25,455 nt of DNA from a virus (taxonomy: Duplodnaviria > Caudoviricetes), in IMG/VR virus record IMGVR_UViG_3300040960_001144, positions 1-25,455 of that record, one strand, 5' to 3'. A program made the translations under genes and the position numbers. The notes beneath the pieces were generated by a model. That model did no database searches. It was not told the origin of the DNA and saw only the letters and a list, made by a program, of their open reading frames with translations. How positions within the stretch are numbered: the first letter of the stretch is position 1; the number at the start of each line of letters is the position of its first letter. Below, one piece after another: positions 1,802 to 23,592 of this stretch.

Positions 1802-4800
1802 ATGGCAAGAAAAATAGCAATAGAATTAGAAGTTAATGGTGTTAAAGAAAGTGTTAATACTATTGGTGAATTAGAAACTGCGATAGAACAACTAACGGAG
1901 GAACTGAAGAATACAGATATAGGTAGTGAGAGGTTCCAACAATTAACAACAGAACTTAATAGTGCGAAGAGTGAGTTAAAGGCGTTTGAGCAGACATTTG
2001 AGGGTTTAGACCCCCAACAAAAGACACAGGCATACTTGGCTTTTGGAGAAAGTATTGTATCAGGTATATTGTTGGCTCAAGAAGCGTTAAGAGTATTCGG
2101 TATAGAGAATGAAGAGGTAAATGCGGCTGTTGAGAAATCAACTCAAGCGATTAATGTGGCACTTCAGGCTCGTATTGTAATTGAAGGGGTTTTGGAGGCT
2201 CGTGTCCTCGCAACATCATTAGCACAGAAGGCATTAAATACTTCTATTGTCGCAGGTAATAGGGTATTAAAGGCGTTATTCTTAACCATCCAAGCGAACC
2301 CCGTAGGTTTCCTATTGGCAGGTATTGCGGCACTCGCAACAGCGTTTATTGCGTTAAGTGATAGTAGTGATGAGAGCACAGATAGTTTGGAAGAAAATGA
2401 AGCAGCACAGAAGTCATTAGAATTACAATCAAAGAGATTAAAGAGGGAATTGACCGAACTAAATGACGCAACCAACGACTATATTGATAGTGTTGATGAT
2501 TTTGATTTATCCACAGCGATAAGTGAAGTATCAAGGTTGGAACAAGAGTTGAGTGATTTGAATGAAACACAAGACGAAGTAAGGGATTTGGACTTTGAGG
2601 AAATCGCTTTGAGTTTGGTAAGGGATGAAGCCGATTTGAACGATTTTAACCTATCTCTGGCCGAACAAAAAACTTTATTTGATATTCTTATTGAAGCAAC
2701 CGATAAATACGAAGGTTCGTTAAGAAAAGCACAAGGAACGAACGCAGAAATCCAACAAAAGAACCTTAAAAATATTGAGAGAGTATCCAACGAATTACAG
2801 GAACAGATAGAAAGAACTGAAGGTAATACCGAAGCGTTGGAGAAACAACTTGCGGCAGTAAATAAGAGAGTAGAACAATTAAGGGCGGAAATATCAAAGA
2901 GAGAGTTTGATAGATTTACAAAATCATTAGAAGATGCTGGTGATGAGTTGGATAGATTAAATGAGAAGTTATTAGAGTTCGGTGAAACCCCCTCACCAAA
3001 GATTATAGATGAATTGGAGGAGTTAGTCCAATTACAATTAGAACTACAAAAAGCAACAGAAGAAAGTAGAAAAACTTTGGGTGATACTTTTAATGATTAT
3101 TTCACTACGATTAAAGAAAGCACAACTGCGACAGATGATTTTGGTGAGAGTTATGAAGAAACAAGAAAGGCATTAACTCAAGCGTTAGAGACAGGTGATT
3201 TTGAGAAGTTCAATCAAGAGGTAGAAAGAACACAAGAGAAATACTTTGGTGAAGATAGTGATTTTAACAAAGAACAGAAAAATGTTATTAATCAGTTGAT
3301 TAGTAGTTATTCATCATTATTCCAACAGATACAAGGGTTCGGGGCAGAAACTGAAGAAGAGTTTAGTTCGGTTATAACCCCCTTACTTGATAGTTTGGCA
3401 CAGAAGTTAAGATTGGAGGGTGATTTACAATTTGTTATAGATAAAGATGAGGTAGAAGAAACCATAGACGAAGCATTACCTACCGGAAGATTAGGTGGCG
3501 CACGATTAAGAAGAAGTGTAGATGTAGATATATCAGGTGTTGTAGATGAGAGTGATTTTAGTAGTATCGCAAGAATATTCAAAGAACAAGAAGATATTAT
3601 AACTGAATATGAACTTGATTTACAAGAGGCAGTTGAAGGAACTGACGAGTTTTATAGATTAAGAAGTGATTTGGTGAATAGATTTACTGAAGAGTTTTTA
3701 AAACAGGCTGACTTTGTTGCTCTTGCCGCAGAAGACGAACAGAAAGCACAAGAAGCAGCCAGACAGGCCGCAGAAGAAAGAGTTGAAAGTATTATTAACA
3801 TCACCACAGAGACAGCGAAGGTTGAAGATAGTATAAGGGGTGTATCCAACGAGGTTGAAGATTTAAGAAATCAGGTAAGAGAAAACAATAGTGATATAGA
3901 CACTCTATTAGGTCTTATATTAACAAACTTTGATGATATTAAAGACCAGATTGACTTAACAGAATTAGACCCCACAGCGACCCTTGAAACCAACTTTGAG
4001 GCAATCAGTAAGTTCTTTGAAGATATTGGATTTGAAAGTTTTGATGTATTGGTTAGAACGGAACAGGATAAGTTGGATATTGTTGAATTATTCCTCAAGA
4101 AGAGACAGGAGTTAATAGATAATCAAGCGAAAGAAGAAAAAGAAACACAAGAAGACCTATTACAAACGACCTTTGATAATTATAGTGAAATTATAAGTGG
4201 ATTAAACCAACTTACATTATCGTTGAGTGAGGCATCACAATTACAAATAGAAAGGGTGGAAGCCAACACAGAAGAAGCGTTAAGTAATATTGTTGGTGAT
4301 ACAAAAGAGGCAGAAGAGTTAAGAACTGAAATACAGGAGGAAAGTAATGAAAAGATTGTTGAGATAGAGAGAAGGGCGAGGTTGAGAGAACTACAATTTA
4401 CGAAGATACAGGCTACAGCGGACTTGGCACAAGCGTTAATAAATGCGTTGAAATTACCCCCTCCGTTTAACGCAATTCAAGCGTCAATTATTGGAACTGC
4501 TGGTTCAATACAAATAGCAACCATTCAAGGACAAATTGACGACTTACAATCGGCTCAAGGTTTCGCAACAGGTGGATATGTTGAAGGCCCTGGTAGTGGA
4601 ACAAGTGATAGTATCCCCGCTATGTTAAGTAATGGGGAGTTTGTTGTTAATGCGAAAGCAACACAAAAGTTCTTACCATTATTGGAAGAAATAAACGATA
4701 GTGATACTCAATTTAGAAAGTTCGCTAATGGTGGTTATGTCTTGGATACAACAATTCCTACTACTTCAACTATACAGAATATTTTTGATGATAGTAGAAT

Positions 4801-9035: not shown

Positions 9036-10160
9036 ATGATAAATTGGAACGGAAGAAGATATGTCCCCGCTGGACTTAAACCATTTTTAAATAGAAAAGG
9101 TGTCCCTGTTAATGGGAGACCAAAAACTGCGTGGGTCGCATCTTTTGTTGGTGGTGAGACCGAAGAAACCCCAATTCCATCACCATCAATTACCCCAACT
9201 CCAAGTCCAACCTTAAGTCCTACACCAAGTCCAACTTTACCTGAAACCTGCCATATTGAAGCACAGAATGGAGATATTCTAATCGCACAAAATGGTGATT
9301 ATATAGACCACTTCCCTTGTATTGAACCATCGCCGACACCAACTCCCACAAGTAGTATAACTCCAACTCCGAGTATTACTCCTACTATAACTCCAACTCC
9401 AAGTTCTATACCTTTAGACCCCGACGCTCAAGCATATCTTGACGATGTTGTCGCTTCAGGGGGAACGATAGATGCCACCATAACATCAGCGGTTGATACA
9501 TTATTCACAGACCTTAAGTCAAATGGTCTTTATAGTAAATTACACTTCTATCCGTTTGTTGGAGGAACTGCTGCTTCACACGCATTATATCACAACAGAA
9601 CATTAGGAACCACTTATGATATTAGTTGGTTGGGTGGAGTGTCTCACGATATAAGCGGTTCAACTGGTAATAACACAAATGGTTATGGAGTTCATTCATT
9701 AGGGAGAACGATTTTTTCTAATTTAGGTGATATATCACAAGGGGTTTATGTTATTGGTGATGGTTCTGCGGATGTTTCGTATGAATTACAATCAACAGGA
9801 ACAGACGATAATGCTTTAATAACAAGATATATTAATGATTTAGCATATGTTAGATATTCATCATTTATTACTGGTACAAATACAGATGGGACAGGACTTT
9901 ATATTTCTACTTTAACTGGTTCAACTGGTGGTGTTGTTAAGTTGATTAAGAATGGTTCAACTACTTTAATTAATTCAACCACGAATGATAATGATTATAT
10001 ATCATCCAACTCACAAATTATGCGTGGACCTAGTTCTGCTTATTCACCAAGAACATTTAACTTTGTTGTATATTCAACATATCTAACTGATAGTGAAGTA
10101 TCCACATTATCAACAATCATAAACACATTCCAAACAACACTTGGAAGAAATACATATTAA
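9036..10160 (+). CDS. Virion fibre/decoration protein with Pro/Thr/Ser linkers
   Basis: Has two PT/PS repeat tracts (~9171-9243 and ~9324-9413) and an 'IEAQNGDILIAQNGDYI' motif. These precede a 'DPDAQAYL...DLKSNGLYSKLHFYPFVGGTAASH' domain and a beta-rich C-terminus. Confidence 0.6.
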   Translation: MINWNGRRYVPAGLKPFLNRKGVPVNGRPKTAWVASFVGGETEETPIPSPSITPTPSPTLSPTPSPTLPETCHIEAQNGDILIAQNGDYIDHFPCIEPSPTPTPTSSITPTPSITPTITPTPSSIPLDPDAQAYLDDVVASGGTIDATITSAVDTLFTDLKSNGLYSKLHFYPFVGGTAASHALYHNRTLGTTYDISWLGGVSHDISGSTGNNTNGYGVHSLGRTIFSNLGDISQGVYVIGDGSADVSYELQSTGTDDNALITRYINDLAYVRYSSFITGTNTDGTGLYISTLTGSTGGVVKLIKNGSTTLINSTTNDNDYISSNSQIMRGPSSAYSPRTFNFVVYSTYLTDSEVSTLSTIINTFQTTLGRNTY

Positions 10161-10164
10161 AAAA

Positions 10165-10383
10165 ATGGAAGTAAGATTATTAACACTTATTGAGAAGGAG
10201 GCGATTGAAGGAAAACAATACGCTCCATCATCATATTTCAATCCAATAGAGGATTGTGATGGAAATTGGATTATCTCACAACAGGAGTGTGATAATTGTG
10301 TAAATCCTGATTATCTATGGGTTAAGGACTTACCTGTTATTCAGTATTGTCCCGTTCCCGCTCCCCCAATAGACGAAATATAA
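10165..10383 (+). CDS. Small hypothetical protein, probable partner of the upstream fibre
   Basis: 72 aa from ATG 10165, 4 nt after the upstream stop and preceded by an A run. Contains 'YFNPIEDCDGNWIIS'. Confidence 0.65.
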   Translation: MEVRLLTLIEKEAIEGKQYAPSSYFNPIEDCDGNWIISQQECDNCVNPDYLWVKDLPVIQYCPVPAPPIDEI

Positions 10384-18573: not shown

Positions 18574-18639
18574 ATAAATATAGTTGAATAAAAAAAAGTT
18601 TCAAATAATTTGACTTTTTTGTTTGTATGGAGTATTTAT
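18574..18639. promoter_or_regulatory. Back-to-back divergent promoters
   Basis: Rightward TTGACT(18610-15)-N17-TATTTAT(18633-39) and leftward TTGAAA(18604-18599)-N18-TATTTAT(18580-74). An imperfect inverted repeat aaaaaagtttcaaa-taa-tttgactttttt spans both upstream boxes. Confidence 0.6.
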
Positions 18640-20860: not shown

Positions 20861-21052
20861 ATGAACGAAAAGATTTACGGATTGATAAGACATATTTTGT
20901 CGTTTGGAGCAGGTGTTCTGGTGACGAAAGGTGTTATAGATGAAAGCGCATTAACAGAACTTGTTGGTGCTGTTATGACTATGATTGCGTTTGGATGGTC
21001 GTATTACAACAAAATAAAGTTTGAGGGTAGTAATACCGAAGAAGAGAAATAA
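20861..21052 (+). CDS. Putative holin (2 TM, Pam3-gp28-like)
   Basis: 'GLIRHILSFGAGVLVTKG.ID....ELVGAVMTMIAFGWS..NK' gives two hydrophobic helices and a charged C-terminal tail. Confidence 0.7.
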   Translation: MNEKIYGLIRHILSFGAGVLVTKGVIDESALTELVGAVMTMIAFGWSYYNKIKFEGSNTEEEK

Positions 21053-21516
21053 TGGAACAGAACCAACCAAATCCTCCTCATAGACCAACTTATGTGAATA
21101 TGGACTGGTTGGTTGAAAGAGGTAAGGTGCCTGAAACTTGGGCTGATGATATTATCAACTTGGGGAAGGTTGGAAAGAATAAAACAAACTTTGCCAACTA
21201 CCTTAACATCTCAAGAGATGTATTTTATAAACTTATGGATAGAGACCCAAAGTTAAAAAAGGTTGTTAATATGGCAATGTCCTTTAGTGAAGAATGGTGG
21301 CAAGAAAAAGGAAGACAGGCTTGGGAAGAAGGAACAAGTCAAAAATTAAATAGTCAATTCTTCAAATATTATATGTCTAATGTATATAGAGATAGTTGGA
21401 AGGTTAATGTTGATATTACAACCGATGGTGAAAAGATTAACAAGGTTGATGATAAAATCAAAATCCAAATTATCAGACCAGAGATAGAAGATAATGAAGA
21501 TAAGGAAAGTCAGTGA
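21052..21516 (+). CDS. terS: Terminase small subunit
   Basis: HTH 'FANYLNISRDVFYKL', 'SEEWWQEKGR', 'LNSQFFKYYMSN' and C-terminal 'VDITTDGEKI...IKIQII'. It lies upstream of terL. Confidence 0.75.
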   Translation: MEQNQPNPPHRPTYVNMDWLVERGKVPETWADDIINLGKVGKNKTNFANYLNISRDVFYKLMDRDPKLKKVVNMAMSFSEEWWQEKGRQAWEEGTSQKLNSQFFKYYMSNVYRDSWKVNVDITTDGEKINKVDDKIKIQIIRPEIEDNEDKESQ

Positions 21517-21527
21517 TATTTATTATT

Positions 21528-21616
21528 AGATTTTAGTATCTGCCATATTTAATATATTTTTTTTAATTGATTTATTTTTTAATCCCCTGACCTAACGAGG
21601 TTGGGGGATTTATTTT
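21528..21616 (+). ncRNA. Candidate ~88-nt small RNA
   Basis: ORF-free + strand interval bounded by the recurrent ATATTTAT motif (21516-23) and a 13-bp terminator stem. Its 5' half is the reverse complement of an A-rich leader plus ATG GCA GAT ACT AAA ATC. Confidence 0.4.
21581..21616 (+). terminator. Rho-independent terminator
   Basis: AATCCCCTGACCT-aacg-AGGTTGGGGGATT forms 13 bp including two G.U pairs that work only on the + strand, followed by TATTTT. Confidence 0.85.
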
Positions 21617-21644
21617 GTGAATTAAAATATTTGTTGTATATTTG
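21614..21644 (+). promoter_or_regulatory. Bacteroidota housekeeping-sigma promoter, leaderless
   Basis: TTTG(21614-17)-N19-TATATTTG(21637-44)-gggt-ATG(21649). Confidence 0.8.
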
Positions 21645-21648
21645 GGGT

Positions 21649-22386
21649 ATGGAACAAGAAATCACATATAAGAAGTGTAGTAAGTGTGGGGAGGAGAAAC
21701 CCTTGACGAGTGAATATTTTTATAAACAAAAAAATTCTTTAACTTCTCGTTGTAAATTATGTATTAATGAAGATAGAAAGAAATCATACAAAAACAAAAA
21801 ATTAGAAACCAGAAAAAAACAAAAAGAGTATTATTATAATAATAAAGAGAAAATAATAAAAAAACAAAAAGAATATTATTATGATAATCGCGATGAATTA
21901 TTAAAAAAACAAAAAGAATATTATTATGATAATCGCGATGAATTATTAAAAAATAAAATAGTTTATTTTAGAAAAAATAAAAAAAGGATGTGCGAATATA
22001 GTAATCAATATCAAAAACAAAGAAAAAAAAAGGATAAGATATTTAAATTAACACATAATTTTAGAAACATTTTAATTTCTTCTTTTAAGAAAAAAGGTTG
22101 GAGTAAAAAATCTAAAACTTATAATTACTTAAAATGTGATTGGAAGACATTAAAAAAACATATTGAAAATCAATTTGTAGATGGTATGACTTGGGATAAT
22201 CACGGAGAATGGCATTACGACCATTATTATCCTGTATCACTCGCACAGACAGAAGAAGATATGTATATCTTCAATCACTACACTAACTTCCAACCATTAT
22301 GGGCTAAAGACAATATAATTAAGTCAAACAAAGTCCCTGATGGATTTGAAGAGTGGTATAAGATGATGAGAAAAAAAGTCCTCTAA
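21649..22386 (+). CDS. HNH-type homing endonuclease with N-terminal Zn ribbon
   Basis: 'KKCSKCGEEKP...SRCKLC', Lys-rich helical repeats, and 'GMTWDNHGEWHYDH..P...NHYTNFQPLWAKDN..KSNK'. ATG 21649 follows a promoter. Confidence 0.8.
   Translation: MEQEITYKKCSKCGEEKPLTSEYFYKQKNSLTSRCKLCINEDRKKSYKNKKLETRKKQKEYYYNNKEKIIKKQKEYYYDNRDELLKKQKEYYYDNRDELLKNKIVYFRKNKKRMCEYSNQYQKQRKKKDKIFKLTHNFRNILISSFKKKGWSKKSKTYNYLKCDWKTLKKHIENQFVDGMTWDNHGEWHYDHYYPVSLAQTEEDMYIFNHYTNFQPLWAKDNIIKSNKVPDGFEEWYKMMRKKVL
21814..21948 (+). repeat. 45-bp tandem repeat (KKQKEYYYDNRDELL x2 plus one diverged copy)
   Basis: Identical copies at 21859-21903 and 21904-21948; diverged copy KKQKEYYYNNKEKII at 21814-21858. Confidence 0.9.
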
Positions 22387-22409: not shown

Positions 22410-22437
22410 AGATATTTATGGTTATATTATATGAACG

Positions 22438-23592
22438 ATGAATATAAAAACTACGAGAGTGTTTGAGGAAATTGAAAACAACATAGACAACTACAGAATG
22501 ATTAGTTGTCGTGGTGGTTCAAGAAGTGGTAAGACATTTAACATCTGTATATGGTTGGTAGTATATTGTTTAAGAAATAAAAACAAAACAATATCAATCG
22601 TTAGAAAAAACTATCCATCATTAAAGGGGTCTGTAATGAAAGATTTTATTGAAGTGTTGGAAATGTTCGGGAGATACAATCCAAATGATTTAAGACGACA
22701 GGAGATGTATTATACACTAAACAATAACACAATAGAGTTCCTTAATAGTGAAGACGAACAAAAACTTCGTGGTCGTTCCAGAGATATTTGTTTTATAAAT
22801 GAAGCAAACGAATTACACAGAGACGAATATACACAACTGGCAATAAGAACAAGAGAGAAGATTATTATAGATTATAACCCAAGTGATATAGATAGTTGGA
22901 TATATGAAGAAGAGGAGAAAGAAACTTGTTATTGGTTCAAAACGACATACAAGGATAATGTCTTTTTACAACAGGCAGTAATAGATGAAATAGAAGCACT
23001 AAAAGACAAAGATGAAAACCTTTACAGAGTATTCACATTAGGTGAAAGGGGAATTGCGAGAGAGTTGGTATTCACAACATTTACAGAAGAACAAACAATA
23101 CCACCAACAGCAAAGTTATTGGGATATGGATTAGATTTTGGATTTGTTGATGCGAACGCATTAGTATCAGTATATAAAGACGGAGAACATTTATATTTTA
23201 AAGAATTGATATATGAAAGTAATTTAACCATTAGTGATTTAATATATCGTATGAGTGAATTACAGATGGATAGAACAGATAATATATGGGCTGATAGTTC
23301 CCAACCAGCAGCCATAGAAGAAATTAGAAGGAGCGGGTTTAATATCAAACCAACAAAGAAGACAACAATAGAATATGGTCTTCAATTACTTAAAAGACAC
23401 TATATACATATTGTAGATAGTCCAAATATATTAAAAGAGTTTAACTCCTACAAATATAAGACAGATAAAGATGGTAGAATACTTGGAATACCAGAGGACA
23501 GAAACAATCATAGTATAGACGCACTTCGCTACGCAGTAGAAATGGAATTACACCCGAAATCAATAAACAGAGGAAAATATGCTTTAGTATGA
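22438..23592 (+). CDS. terL: Terminase large subunit (PBSX/SPP1-like)
   Basis: Walker A GGSRSGKT, 'KLRG...DICFINEANE' (Walker B), 'DYNP', 'TTYKDN', and nuclease motifs GLDFG, ADS and NHSIDALRYA. Confidence 0.95.
   Translation: MNIKTTRVFEEIENNIDNYRMISCRGGSRSGKTFNICIWLVVYCLRNKNKTISIVRKNYPSLKGSVMKDFIEVLEMFGRYNPNDLRRQEMYYTLNNNTIEFLNSEDEQKLRGRSRDICFINEANELHRDEYTQLAIRTREKIIIDYNPSDIDSWIYEEEEKETCYWFKTTYKDNVFLQQAVIDEIEALKDKDENLYRVFTLGERGIARELVFTTFTEEQTIPPTAKLLGYGLDFGFVDANALVSVYKDGEHLYFKELIYESNLTISDLIYRMSELQMDRTDNIWADSSQPAAIEEIRRSGFNIKPTKKTTIEYGLQLLKRHYIHIVDSPNILKEFNSYKYKTDKDGRILGIPEDRNNHSIDALRYAVEMELHPKSINRGKYALV

Follow-up and report, generated by a model that had tools for sequence, protein, structure and literature searches.

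SviR is an intergenic small RNA of the Vibrio cholerae satellite PLE, whose promoter is switched on by ICP1; in the available part of its description, it pairs near the start of the helper gene gp120 and lowers the protein while the mRNA stays equal (10.1101/2022.04.08.487710). The Streptomyces satellites MiniFlayer and MulchRoom carry their own encapsidation genes, yet need a large helper, and MiniFlayer is apparently non-integrating, according to the portion of the account at hand (PMC10690885). Phage-encoded base-pairing small RNAs are also reported to act on host mRNAs (bioRxiv 10.1101/2024.10.31.621285, as excerpted), and bS21 is considered a means by which large Bacteroidetes phages bias their late translation (as outlined in PMC9723584). 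In the literature that we searched, most of it outside subscription journals, SviR was the sole satellite small RNA found acting on a helper phage, and no satellite of the kind proposed below was described in Flavobacteria. The same literature held no account of the RNA presented here or of ATATTTAT as a phage promoter. The c4 antisense RNA of P1 and P7 is a short phage RNA that controls translation by pairing.

We analysed a 25,455-nucleotide stretch of DNA (IMG/VR record IMGVR_UViG_3300040960_001144; hereafter the window) that holds a gene-free unit behind the small terminase gene. Like SviR, this unit is ORF-free and intergenic, with its own promoter motif and an intrinsic terminator, as judged from sequence and conservation; the two were likened by description. 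SviR measures 160-300 nt and has two seeds, whereas the unit would give an RNA of about 85 nt with one 7-nt seed on the start codon itself. The carrier of SviR is an integrated, capsid-less satellite that uses helper capsids, while the window encodes its own capsid, portal, tape-measure and terminase proteins and no integrase match was found. The host of SviR uses Shine-Dalgarno pairing, in contrast to the likely Bacteroidota host here, and where SviR has a named helper gene, the unit possibly addresses a class of starts. With satellites of the MiniFlayer type, the window phage shares an encapsidation machinery of its own and the lack of an integrase match. Those satellites lack key replication genes, however, whereas the window has an initiator and its inferred dependence would concern late transcription and perhaps lysis; the available part of their account (PMC10690885) mentions no interfering RNA. 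A short RNA running from promoter to terminator would also resemble the phage base-pairing small RNAs and c4, but unlike c4 it has no C4 match in Rfam. PMC11697453, as excerpted, offers a pointer to a possible chaperone.

The window spans the greater part of the genome of a small, uncultured aquatic tailed phage (estimated by the tool as 85% complete), in which portal, capsid, protease, tape measure, terminase and holin genes were identified. Its host is likely a member of the Bacteroidota, since the TAnnTTTG sites of the window, which stand 4 nt upstream of an ATG, match the Bacteroidota sigma-A element, placed at −12 to −5 in the part of PMC9723704 available. Family searches with the product of the window terS gave zero matches; its homolog in a complete relative of 31.5 kb (G009) matches a terS PHROG (E-value of 6e-4). 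As terL has its own ATATTTAT site, read-through from terS is not needed for terL.

Table 1. Features of the gene-free unit and its neighbours, in window coordinates.
Feature	Position	Strand	Basis or remark
terS, small terminase subunit, 154 aa	21052..21516	+	ORF; precedes terL; stop overlaps ATATTTAT
ATATTTAT, inferred phage-type promoter element	21516..21523	+	overlaps terS stop; common to large T4-like phages
Predicted small RNA, about 85-89 nt	21528..21616	+	start inferred at motif+4; fold; model R1
5' arm, antisense to codons 3-7 (GAT ACT AAA ATC T from the third codon)	21528..21539	+	varies in relatives
Seed CTGCCAT, complement of ATGGCAG; predicted single-stranded	21540..21546	+	
U-rich tract, complementary in character to A-rich leaders	21547..21580	+	
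Intrinsic terminator-like hairpin, 13 bp, AACG loop, U tail	21581..21617	+	
Antisense micro-ORF MADTKI, 6 codons (ATG GCA GAT ACT AAA ATC TAA)	21546-21526	-	judged a by-product, no gene
Endonuclease gene, leaderless (ATG 21649), with its host-type TAnnTTTG promoter	21637..22386	+	separate, variable cassette
terL with its own ATATTTAT site	22412..23592	+	sequence and family match

The first-pass annotation had pointed to a promoter-like motif followed by a U-rich stretch and a plus-strand terminator instead of a gene, and this is what we found (Table 1). No ORF in the unit directly follows the motif. The 13-bp terminator stem occupies 21581-21610 and runs into TATTTTG; its region folds with a z-score of −6.1, equalled by 0 of 200 shuffles, and a terminator-like score was obtained on the plus strand only. 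Among small-phage genes behind the motif, the spacing from ATATTTAT to the ATG peaks sharply at 4 nt, the same geometry as that of the host element, and +1 was therefore placed at 21528. Pairing begins 0-4 nt from this predicted start in nearly all relatives and sibling units, as would be expected of an RNA with a protected 5' end. No Rfam family out of 4227, C4 included, matched the locus in the window, L019, L020 or L021 at E-values up to 5. In RNA run X1, contigs span 20936-21536 without differences, with coverage that ends inside the unit, and carry no information on strand or ends. Two short X1 contigs at 21547-21582 were discarded as unrelated AT-rich matches, and run X2 held a small share only.

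Read in antisense, the unit consists of an A-rich leader followed by MADTKI and a stop codon, again as annotated. This strand scores 15.7 on a weight matrix built from 224 starts of Flavobacterium phage immuto_2-6A (immuto), where real starts have a median of 10.1; compared with shuffles, the antisense score is unusual in the window (p = 0.01) and in the relatives L025 (p = 0.003) and L047 (p = 0.01). The annotation had seen neither a matching gene start in the window nor a minus-strand promoter, and both statements hold: ATGGCAG occurs four times, never at a gene start, and the minus strand of 21546-22000 has zero TAnnTTTG, TAnnTTGY or nTATTTAT sites.

An alignment of 42 TerS proteins led us to 18 viral and 29 metagenome loci. 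We examined 43 of these 47, omitting three loci in which terS is cut off, as well as L018, whose sequence is that of the window; counts were taken after dropping duplicates and loci lacking downstream sequence. Equivalent units with different guides had been anticipated in relatives, and they are there: the unit lies directly 3' of the terS stop in 11 of 11 distinct close relatives (TerS 67-90% identical), always between terS and terL, and in 0 of 15 distinct distant ones (28-53% identical). Upstream of it, ATATTTAT is invariant across 12 sequences except for one aligner gap. The seed CTGCCAT is kept exactly in nine of the 11 close relatives, the exceptions being L046, with CTGCGAT, and L049, with a different loop, and the covariance of the terminator extends to compensatory changes in five of its 13 pairs, with 96% of cells paired. 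The 5' helix as aligned shows three one-sided changes and zero two-sided or compensatory ones, and conservation in the guide region is limited to the 7-nt seed and a U-rich character. Model R1 matches every close relative. A terminator-pattern scan for further lineages returned four loci, all previously found members, and a more general pattern returned 20, of which three were known members and 17 were opposite-strand gene starts or chance. The single match in a scan of bacterial genomes, at the end of a cyanobacterial cas1, was set aside as chance.

The antisense micro-ORF varies from 5 to 21 aa in relatives where its length is given, and its ATG is missing in L046. A small RNA fits best for this reason, and we regard the conserved unit as very probably a small-RNA gene, which is much the best reading. 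As alternatives, a 6-aa micro-ORF on the minus strand or a gene remnant had been put forward; the remnant would be inverted and functionless today. The antisense strand does look start-like, and an inverted gene-start fragment is a plausible origin of the unit, with MADTKIS-type starts matching it exactly over up to 24 nt (L003). Neither idea sits well with the varying ORF, the lost ATG, the lack of a minus-strand promoter, a terminator predicted on the plus strand only and a seed that is kept on different stems, and both fail as explanations of the unit; we consider them highly improbable. The unit would represent a conserved phage RNA motif that is new and without an Rfam family.

Folding predictions place the seed in the open. 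Its unpaired probability in the window is 0.80-0.99, and in each of the 11 sequences that have the seed, its central bases are predicted to be free of pairing. The stems of the L024 type, L025 and L047 are unrelated in sequence and all show the same seed loop; in the relatives, the first part of the U-rich tract forms the 3' arm of the seed hairpin. In eight of ten relatives, 0-9 of 200 shuffles matched the 5' fold, with 12 in L046 and 23 in L047. Unlike most relatives, the window has a weak 5' hairpin (z-score of 0.47; 129 of 200 shuffles as good). RNAalifold found the terminator only, because the 5' stems stand in different registers.

A short loop and a U tract are the conserved features, and they would also suit a decoy or scaffold RNA for a protein, such as a U-rich-RNA chaperone, ribosomal protein S1 or a translational regulator, in which case the likeness to a start would be incidental. 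Most changes in the 5' arm exchange A and G, with G-U pairs preserving the hairpin, the AUG complement is broken in L046, and most distant sibling units have a U-rich loop without a start-like score. Against this, the loop exactly complements AUG and the commonest next codons of large-phage virion genes, the seed lies at the right distance from the U tract, and the antisense strands of the window, L025 and L047 score as starts at the p-values given above. We rate a decoy as quite unlikely.

The promoter motif is shared with large phages. ATATTTAT occurs 13 times in the window against 5.4 expected, a count reached by 0 of 100 shuffles, and most of the other sites have an ATG 4-6 nt downstream. 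A 50-kb region of immuto has 14 plus-strand sites, which include the upstream regions of sheath and tube; Mel-JY01, another large T4-like phage, also carries the motif before virion genes, and TATTTAT lies within 45 nt upstream of the tube start in 48 of 53 distinct tube genes. In NC_055915.1 and related immuto-like phages, ATATTTAT/TATTTAT marks late genes. The motif is not among the six host promoter motifs described in the part of PMC9723704 available. Sigma70_r2 had no match in five large phages, and a search of 26 proteins of immuto and 68 of G002 brought up no late factor; the Atlas placed two small candidates from the late-sigma search in unnamed clusters only.

We compared how the genes behind this motif begin. 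With homologs counted, the spacing is at most 6 nt for 31 of 57 small-phage genes versus 14 of 318 large-phage genes, and ATGGCAG opens 0 of 57 versus 59 of 318. The late mRNAs of the large phages are leadered, with A-rich leaders; small-phage late genes are mostly leaderless. Portal, sheath and tube belong to the 16 immuto genes, out of 232, that open with ATGGCAG. Across 80 tube-centred loci, it starts 25 of 53 distinct tubes, 16 of 43 sheath calls (seven of the 16 being internal Met calls) and 43 of 550 other genes, and a scan of 9 of 64 parts of the viral sequences found the motif together with ATGGCAGAYAYT at 120 loci, namely 78 portals, five tubes and 37 others. In the complete large phage G002, only four of 191 ORFs begin with ATGGCAG, so large phages cannot all be candidates. 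None of 99 distinct own ORF starts begins with ATGGCAG; this avoidance rests on about six independent Met-Ala families and is weak alone.

Provided that the RNA is real, pairing at start codons seems probable, and if both hold, a large phage is rather likely to be the main target. The reading that we tentatively prefer is that the RNA of about 85 nt mutes the virion genes of a large T4-like helper via their leadered AUG-GCA-G mRNAs. A real start-pairing RNA might instead be aimed at one or more host mRNAs beginning with Met-Ala-Asp/Val/Glu, for example of defence or housekeeping genes, in a phage that may be autonomous. Everything that supports the RNA and its seed applies equally to such a target, the phage has a rep gene, and no helper was identified. 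A-rich leaders and Met-Ala starts are features of Bacteroidota host genes as well. A host target is harder to square with a promoter motif that is common to large phages and is absent from the host motifs in the available part of PMC9723704, and with a seed class that is concentrated on large-phage virion genes; we think it rather unlikely.

We then looked at pairing beyond the seed. The window 5' arm offers a 15-nt exact complement to MADTKLF-type portal starts (L095, L149) and the whole 14-nt arm of the L024 guide matches a MADILSF tube, both matches coming from a pattern-selected set that was chosen with the guide. Net energies of the window RNA are −21.7 to −25.0 kcal/mol on four selected portal starts and −8.1 kcal/mol on its own tape-measure start. 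Among immuto starts, the window guide ranks sheath 14th, tube 15th and portal 18th. Pairing of the L025 guide extends across most of the leader of the immuto tube gene and its first codons, and this guide ranks the tube first of 232. On unselected starts, seed-fixed shuffled guides were as good in 26 of 60 cases for the window, 43 of 60 for L019, 32 of 60 for L024, 33 of 60 for L047 and 14 of 60 for L025; for the last, 34 of 300 did as well against any of 16 immuto starts and 2 of 300 against the tube alone. Of 20 tests for extension of pairing beyond the seed, only one came out at p = 0.04. For five of nine guides, pairing is slightly better at tube starts than at the remaining ATGGCAG starts (p < 0.05), in a comparison whose rows are related, so the tail tube is not established as the single target. 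Eleven sibling guides set against 1834 large-phage starts gave no convincing target.

Pairing beyond the 7-nt seed is thus no better than that of shuffled controls, contrary to the expected excess of complementary starts over background. The results support a seed together with a start class, and no named gene. Of the originally proposed trans-acting RNA pairing across a start codon, the conserved unit, the varying guides and a plausible competing-phage target class stand, and the long complementarity does not. An exact 19-mer scan of viral contigs found 14 loci. Two are the same as the window, and at the other 12 a real gene of an unrelated phage begins; the longest match is the 24 nt of the MADTKIS-type start in L003, and none of these gene starts has TATTTAT within 60 nt upstream. 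As MADTK is a common start, these are kept as leads only. Searching named phages by blastn with the window guide and the L031 loop gave low-complexity matches only.

Regulation of the phage's own genes (endonuclease, terL, terS or a fibre gene), or a mere structured 3' end of the terS mRNA, would account for the constant place of the unit between terS and terL. The guides do not bear this out in the close clade. On own starts, shuffles were as good in 33 of 40 cases for the window guide and in 7-34 of 40 for nine other close guides; L025 reached 2 of 40, at an out-of-frame ATG inside a tail gene. Sites anywhere in the own contig were equalled by 11-24 of 30 shuffles for five close guides, several of the contigs being short. 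Complementarity to an own, usually adjacent, mRNA, by which type I antitoxins and cis-antisense RNAs are recognised, was not found in the close clade, and the own tape-measure and terL starts were rejected as targets by pairing comparisons. Nor do the 99 own ORF starts offer an ATGGCAG, and a promoter motif with a hairpin that begins at the predicted +1 to +5 would be superfluous for a plain 3' UTR.

One sibling unit behaves differently. In L030 (+3376), a predicted helix of 15 bp joins the loop of the unit to the phage's own downstream gene near 3870, equalled by 0 of 40 and 0 of 30 shuffles, which keeps self-regulation alive as an explanation; the wider family may include self-regulators. 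For the close clade, we consider own-gene regulation improbable. The L030 unit reads MQWEQCRI in antisense, and the downstream gene reads MLWEQCRL. Further ORF-free units behind ATATTTAT were seen in L028 (+3667), L031 (−7769), L033 (+8026 and +9275), L034 (+6610), L036 (+373), L064 (+2059), L020 (+3562) and L049 (+765). Sibling units have a closing stem and a U-rich loop, each with a different sequence, and L049 has two in tandem; those of distant relatives show a G-rich arm at +1, a U-rich loop of 35-65 nt, a C-rich arm and a U tail. Scored as antisense starts, only L031 out of eight passed without wobble (p = 0.047).

Protein matches bear on the preferred reading, a small RNA directed at a large helper. 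Scans of the window proteins and 44 proteins of G009 gave no match to a sigma factor, integrase, polymerase or free endolysin; these are absences of matches only, as many small proteins in both have no family. Primase and helicase had no match either. A replication initiator gene is present in the window and G009; L019 and L021, both incomplete, have no initiator at the rep position. The initiator gene or operon stands behind the virion-gene motif class, GTATTTAT or ATATTTAT, in the window (18632-18639), L299 (12575) and L028 (4309), and the G009 rep gene likewise, an arrangement that would be odd for an autonomous phage. An 80-aa protein of the window (10141-10383) is 54% identical to a protein of a large T4-like locus (L226), the only such match among 37 proteins. 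Run X1 contains 80-95% relatives of a large-phage terL-portal stretch; co-occurrence is weak, and no helper can be named. Because of the shared motif, the missing sigma factor, integrase, polymerase and endolysin matches, the rep gene behind the motif and the L226 homolog, we suggest that the small phage depends on a large phage. This points to a satellite-like phage that silences its helper in the manner of SviR. Against such a dependence stand the initiator gene of the window and the large phages themselves, whose scanned proteins gave no late factor either.

In such a system, ATATTTAT would be read only when a large-phage factor is present, so that the RNA would be made in co-infected cells, from motif+4. 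The exposed CCAU would nucleate on the start codon, with pairing on AUG-GCA-G beginning in the loop, after which the 5' arm would zip along codons 3-5 and the U tract would cover the A-rich leader used by Bacteroidota ribosomes. Initiation on helper virion mRNAs such as those of tail tube, sheath and portal would be blocked, while own late mRNAs would escape, most being leaderless and none starting with ATGGCAG. The gain would be reduced competition for ribosomes and fewer helper virions. More broadly, and this we hold to be doubtful, satellites of about 28-31 kb in aquatic Bacteroidota might combine a borrowed immuto-type late promoter with an RNA that filters self from non-self at translation; the distant sibling hairpin RNAs would then be an evolving arsenal of the same kind.

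If the preferred reading is true, this would be a second, unrelated satellite small RNA against a helper, and RNA interference between phages would have evolved more than once. It would also mean start-codon targeting in Bacteroidota, hosts without Shine-Dalgarno pairing, and small aquatic phages with full sets of virion genes would be dependents of abundant T4-like phages. Even with a host target, the unit would be a conserved phage RNA motif new to Rfam.

Several observations concern the surroundings of the unit. In the window (22412-22440) and relatives, terL is among the few leadered genes, with a spacing of 18, and an out-of-frame ATGAAC 7 nt upstream of its start is kept in most relatives. 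The endonuclease gene between unit and terL encodes 195-273 aa across relatives and is absent in L020 and L039; in the window it has a 45-nt tandem duplication, with KKQKEYYYDNRDELL present twice. At the place of the window's rep gene, L019 (4150-4720, minus strand) and L021 (6900-7460, minus strand) have a conserved ORF-free stretch of about 360 nt behind ATATTTAT, which had no Rfam match. A second unit of about 75 nt comes next; it has a terminator, and its 5' end is in part complementary to the long stretch. The arrangement might represent a structured RNA plus its antisense partner, possibly an origin of replication. In the same variable region of L020 (4753-5835), rep is replaced by a DruA-like gene (Pfam PF14236, E-value of 2e-16).
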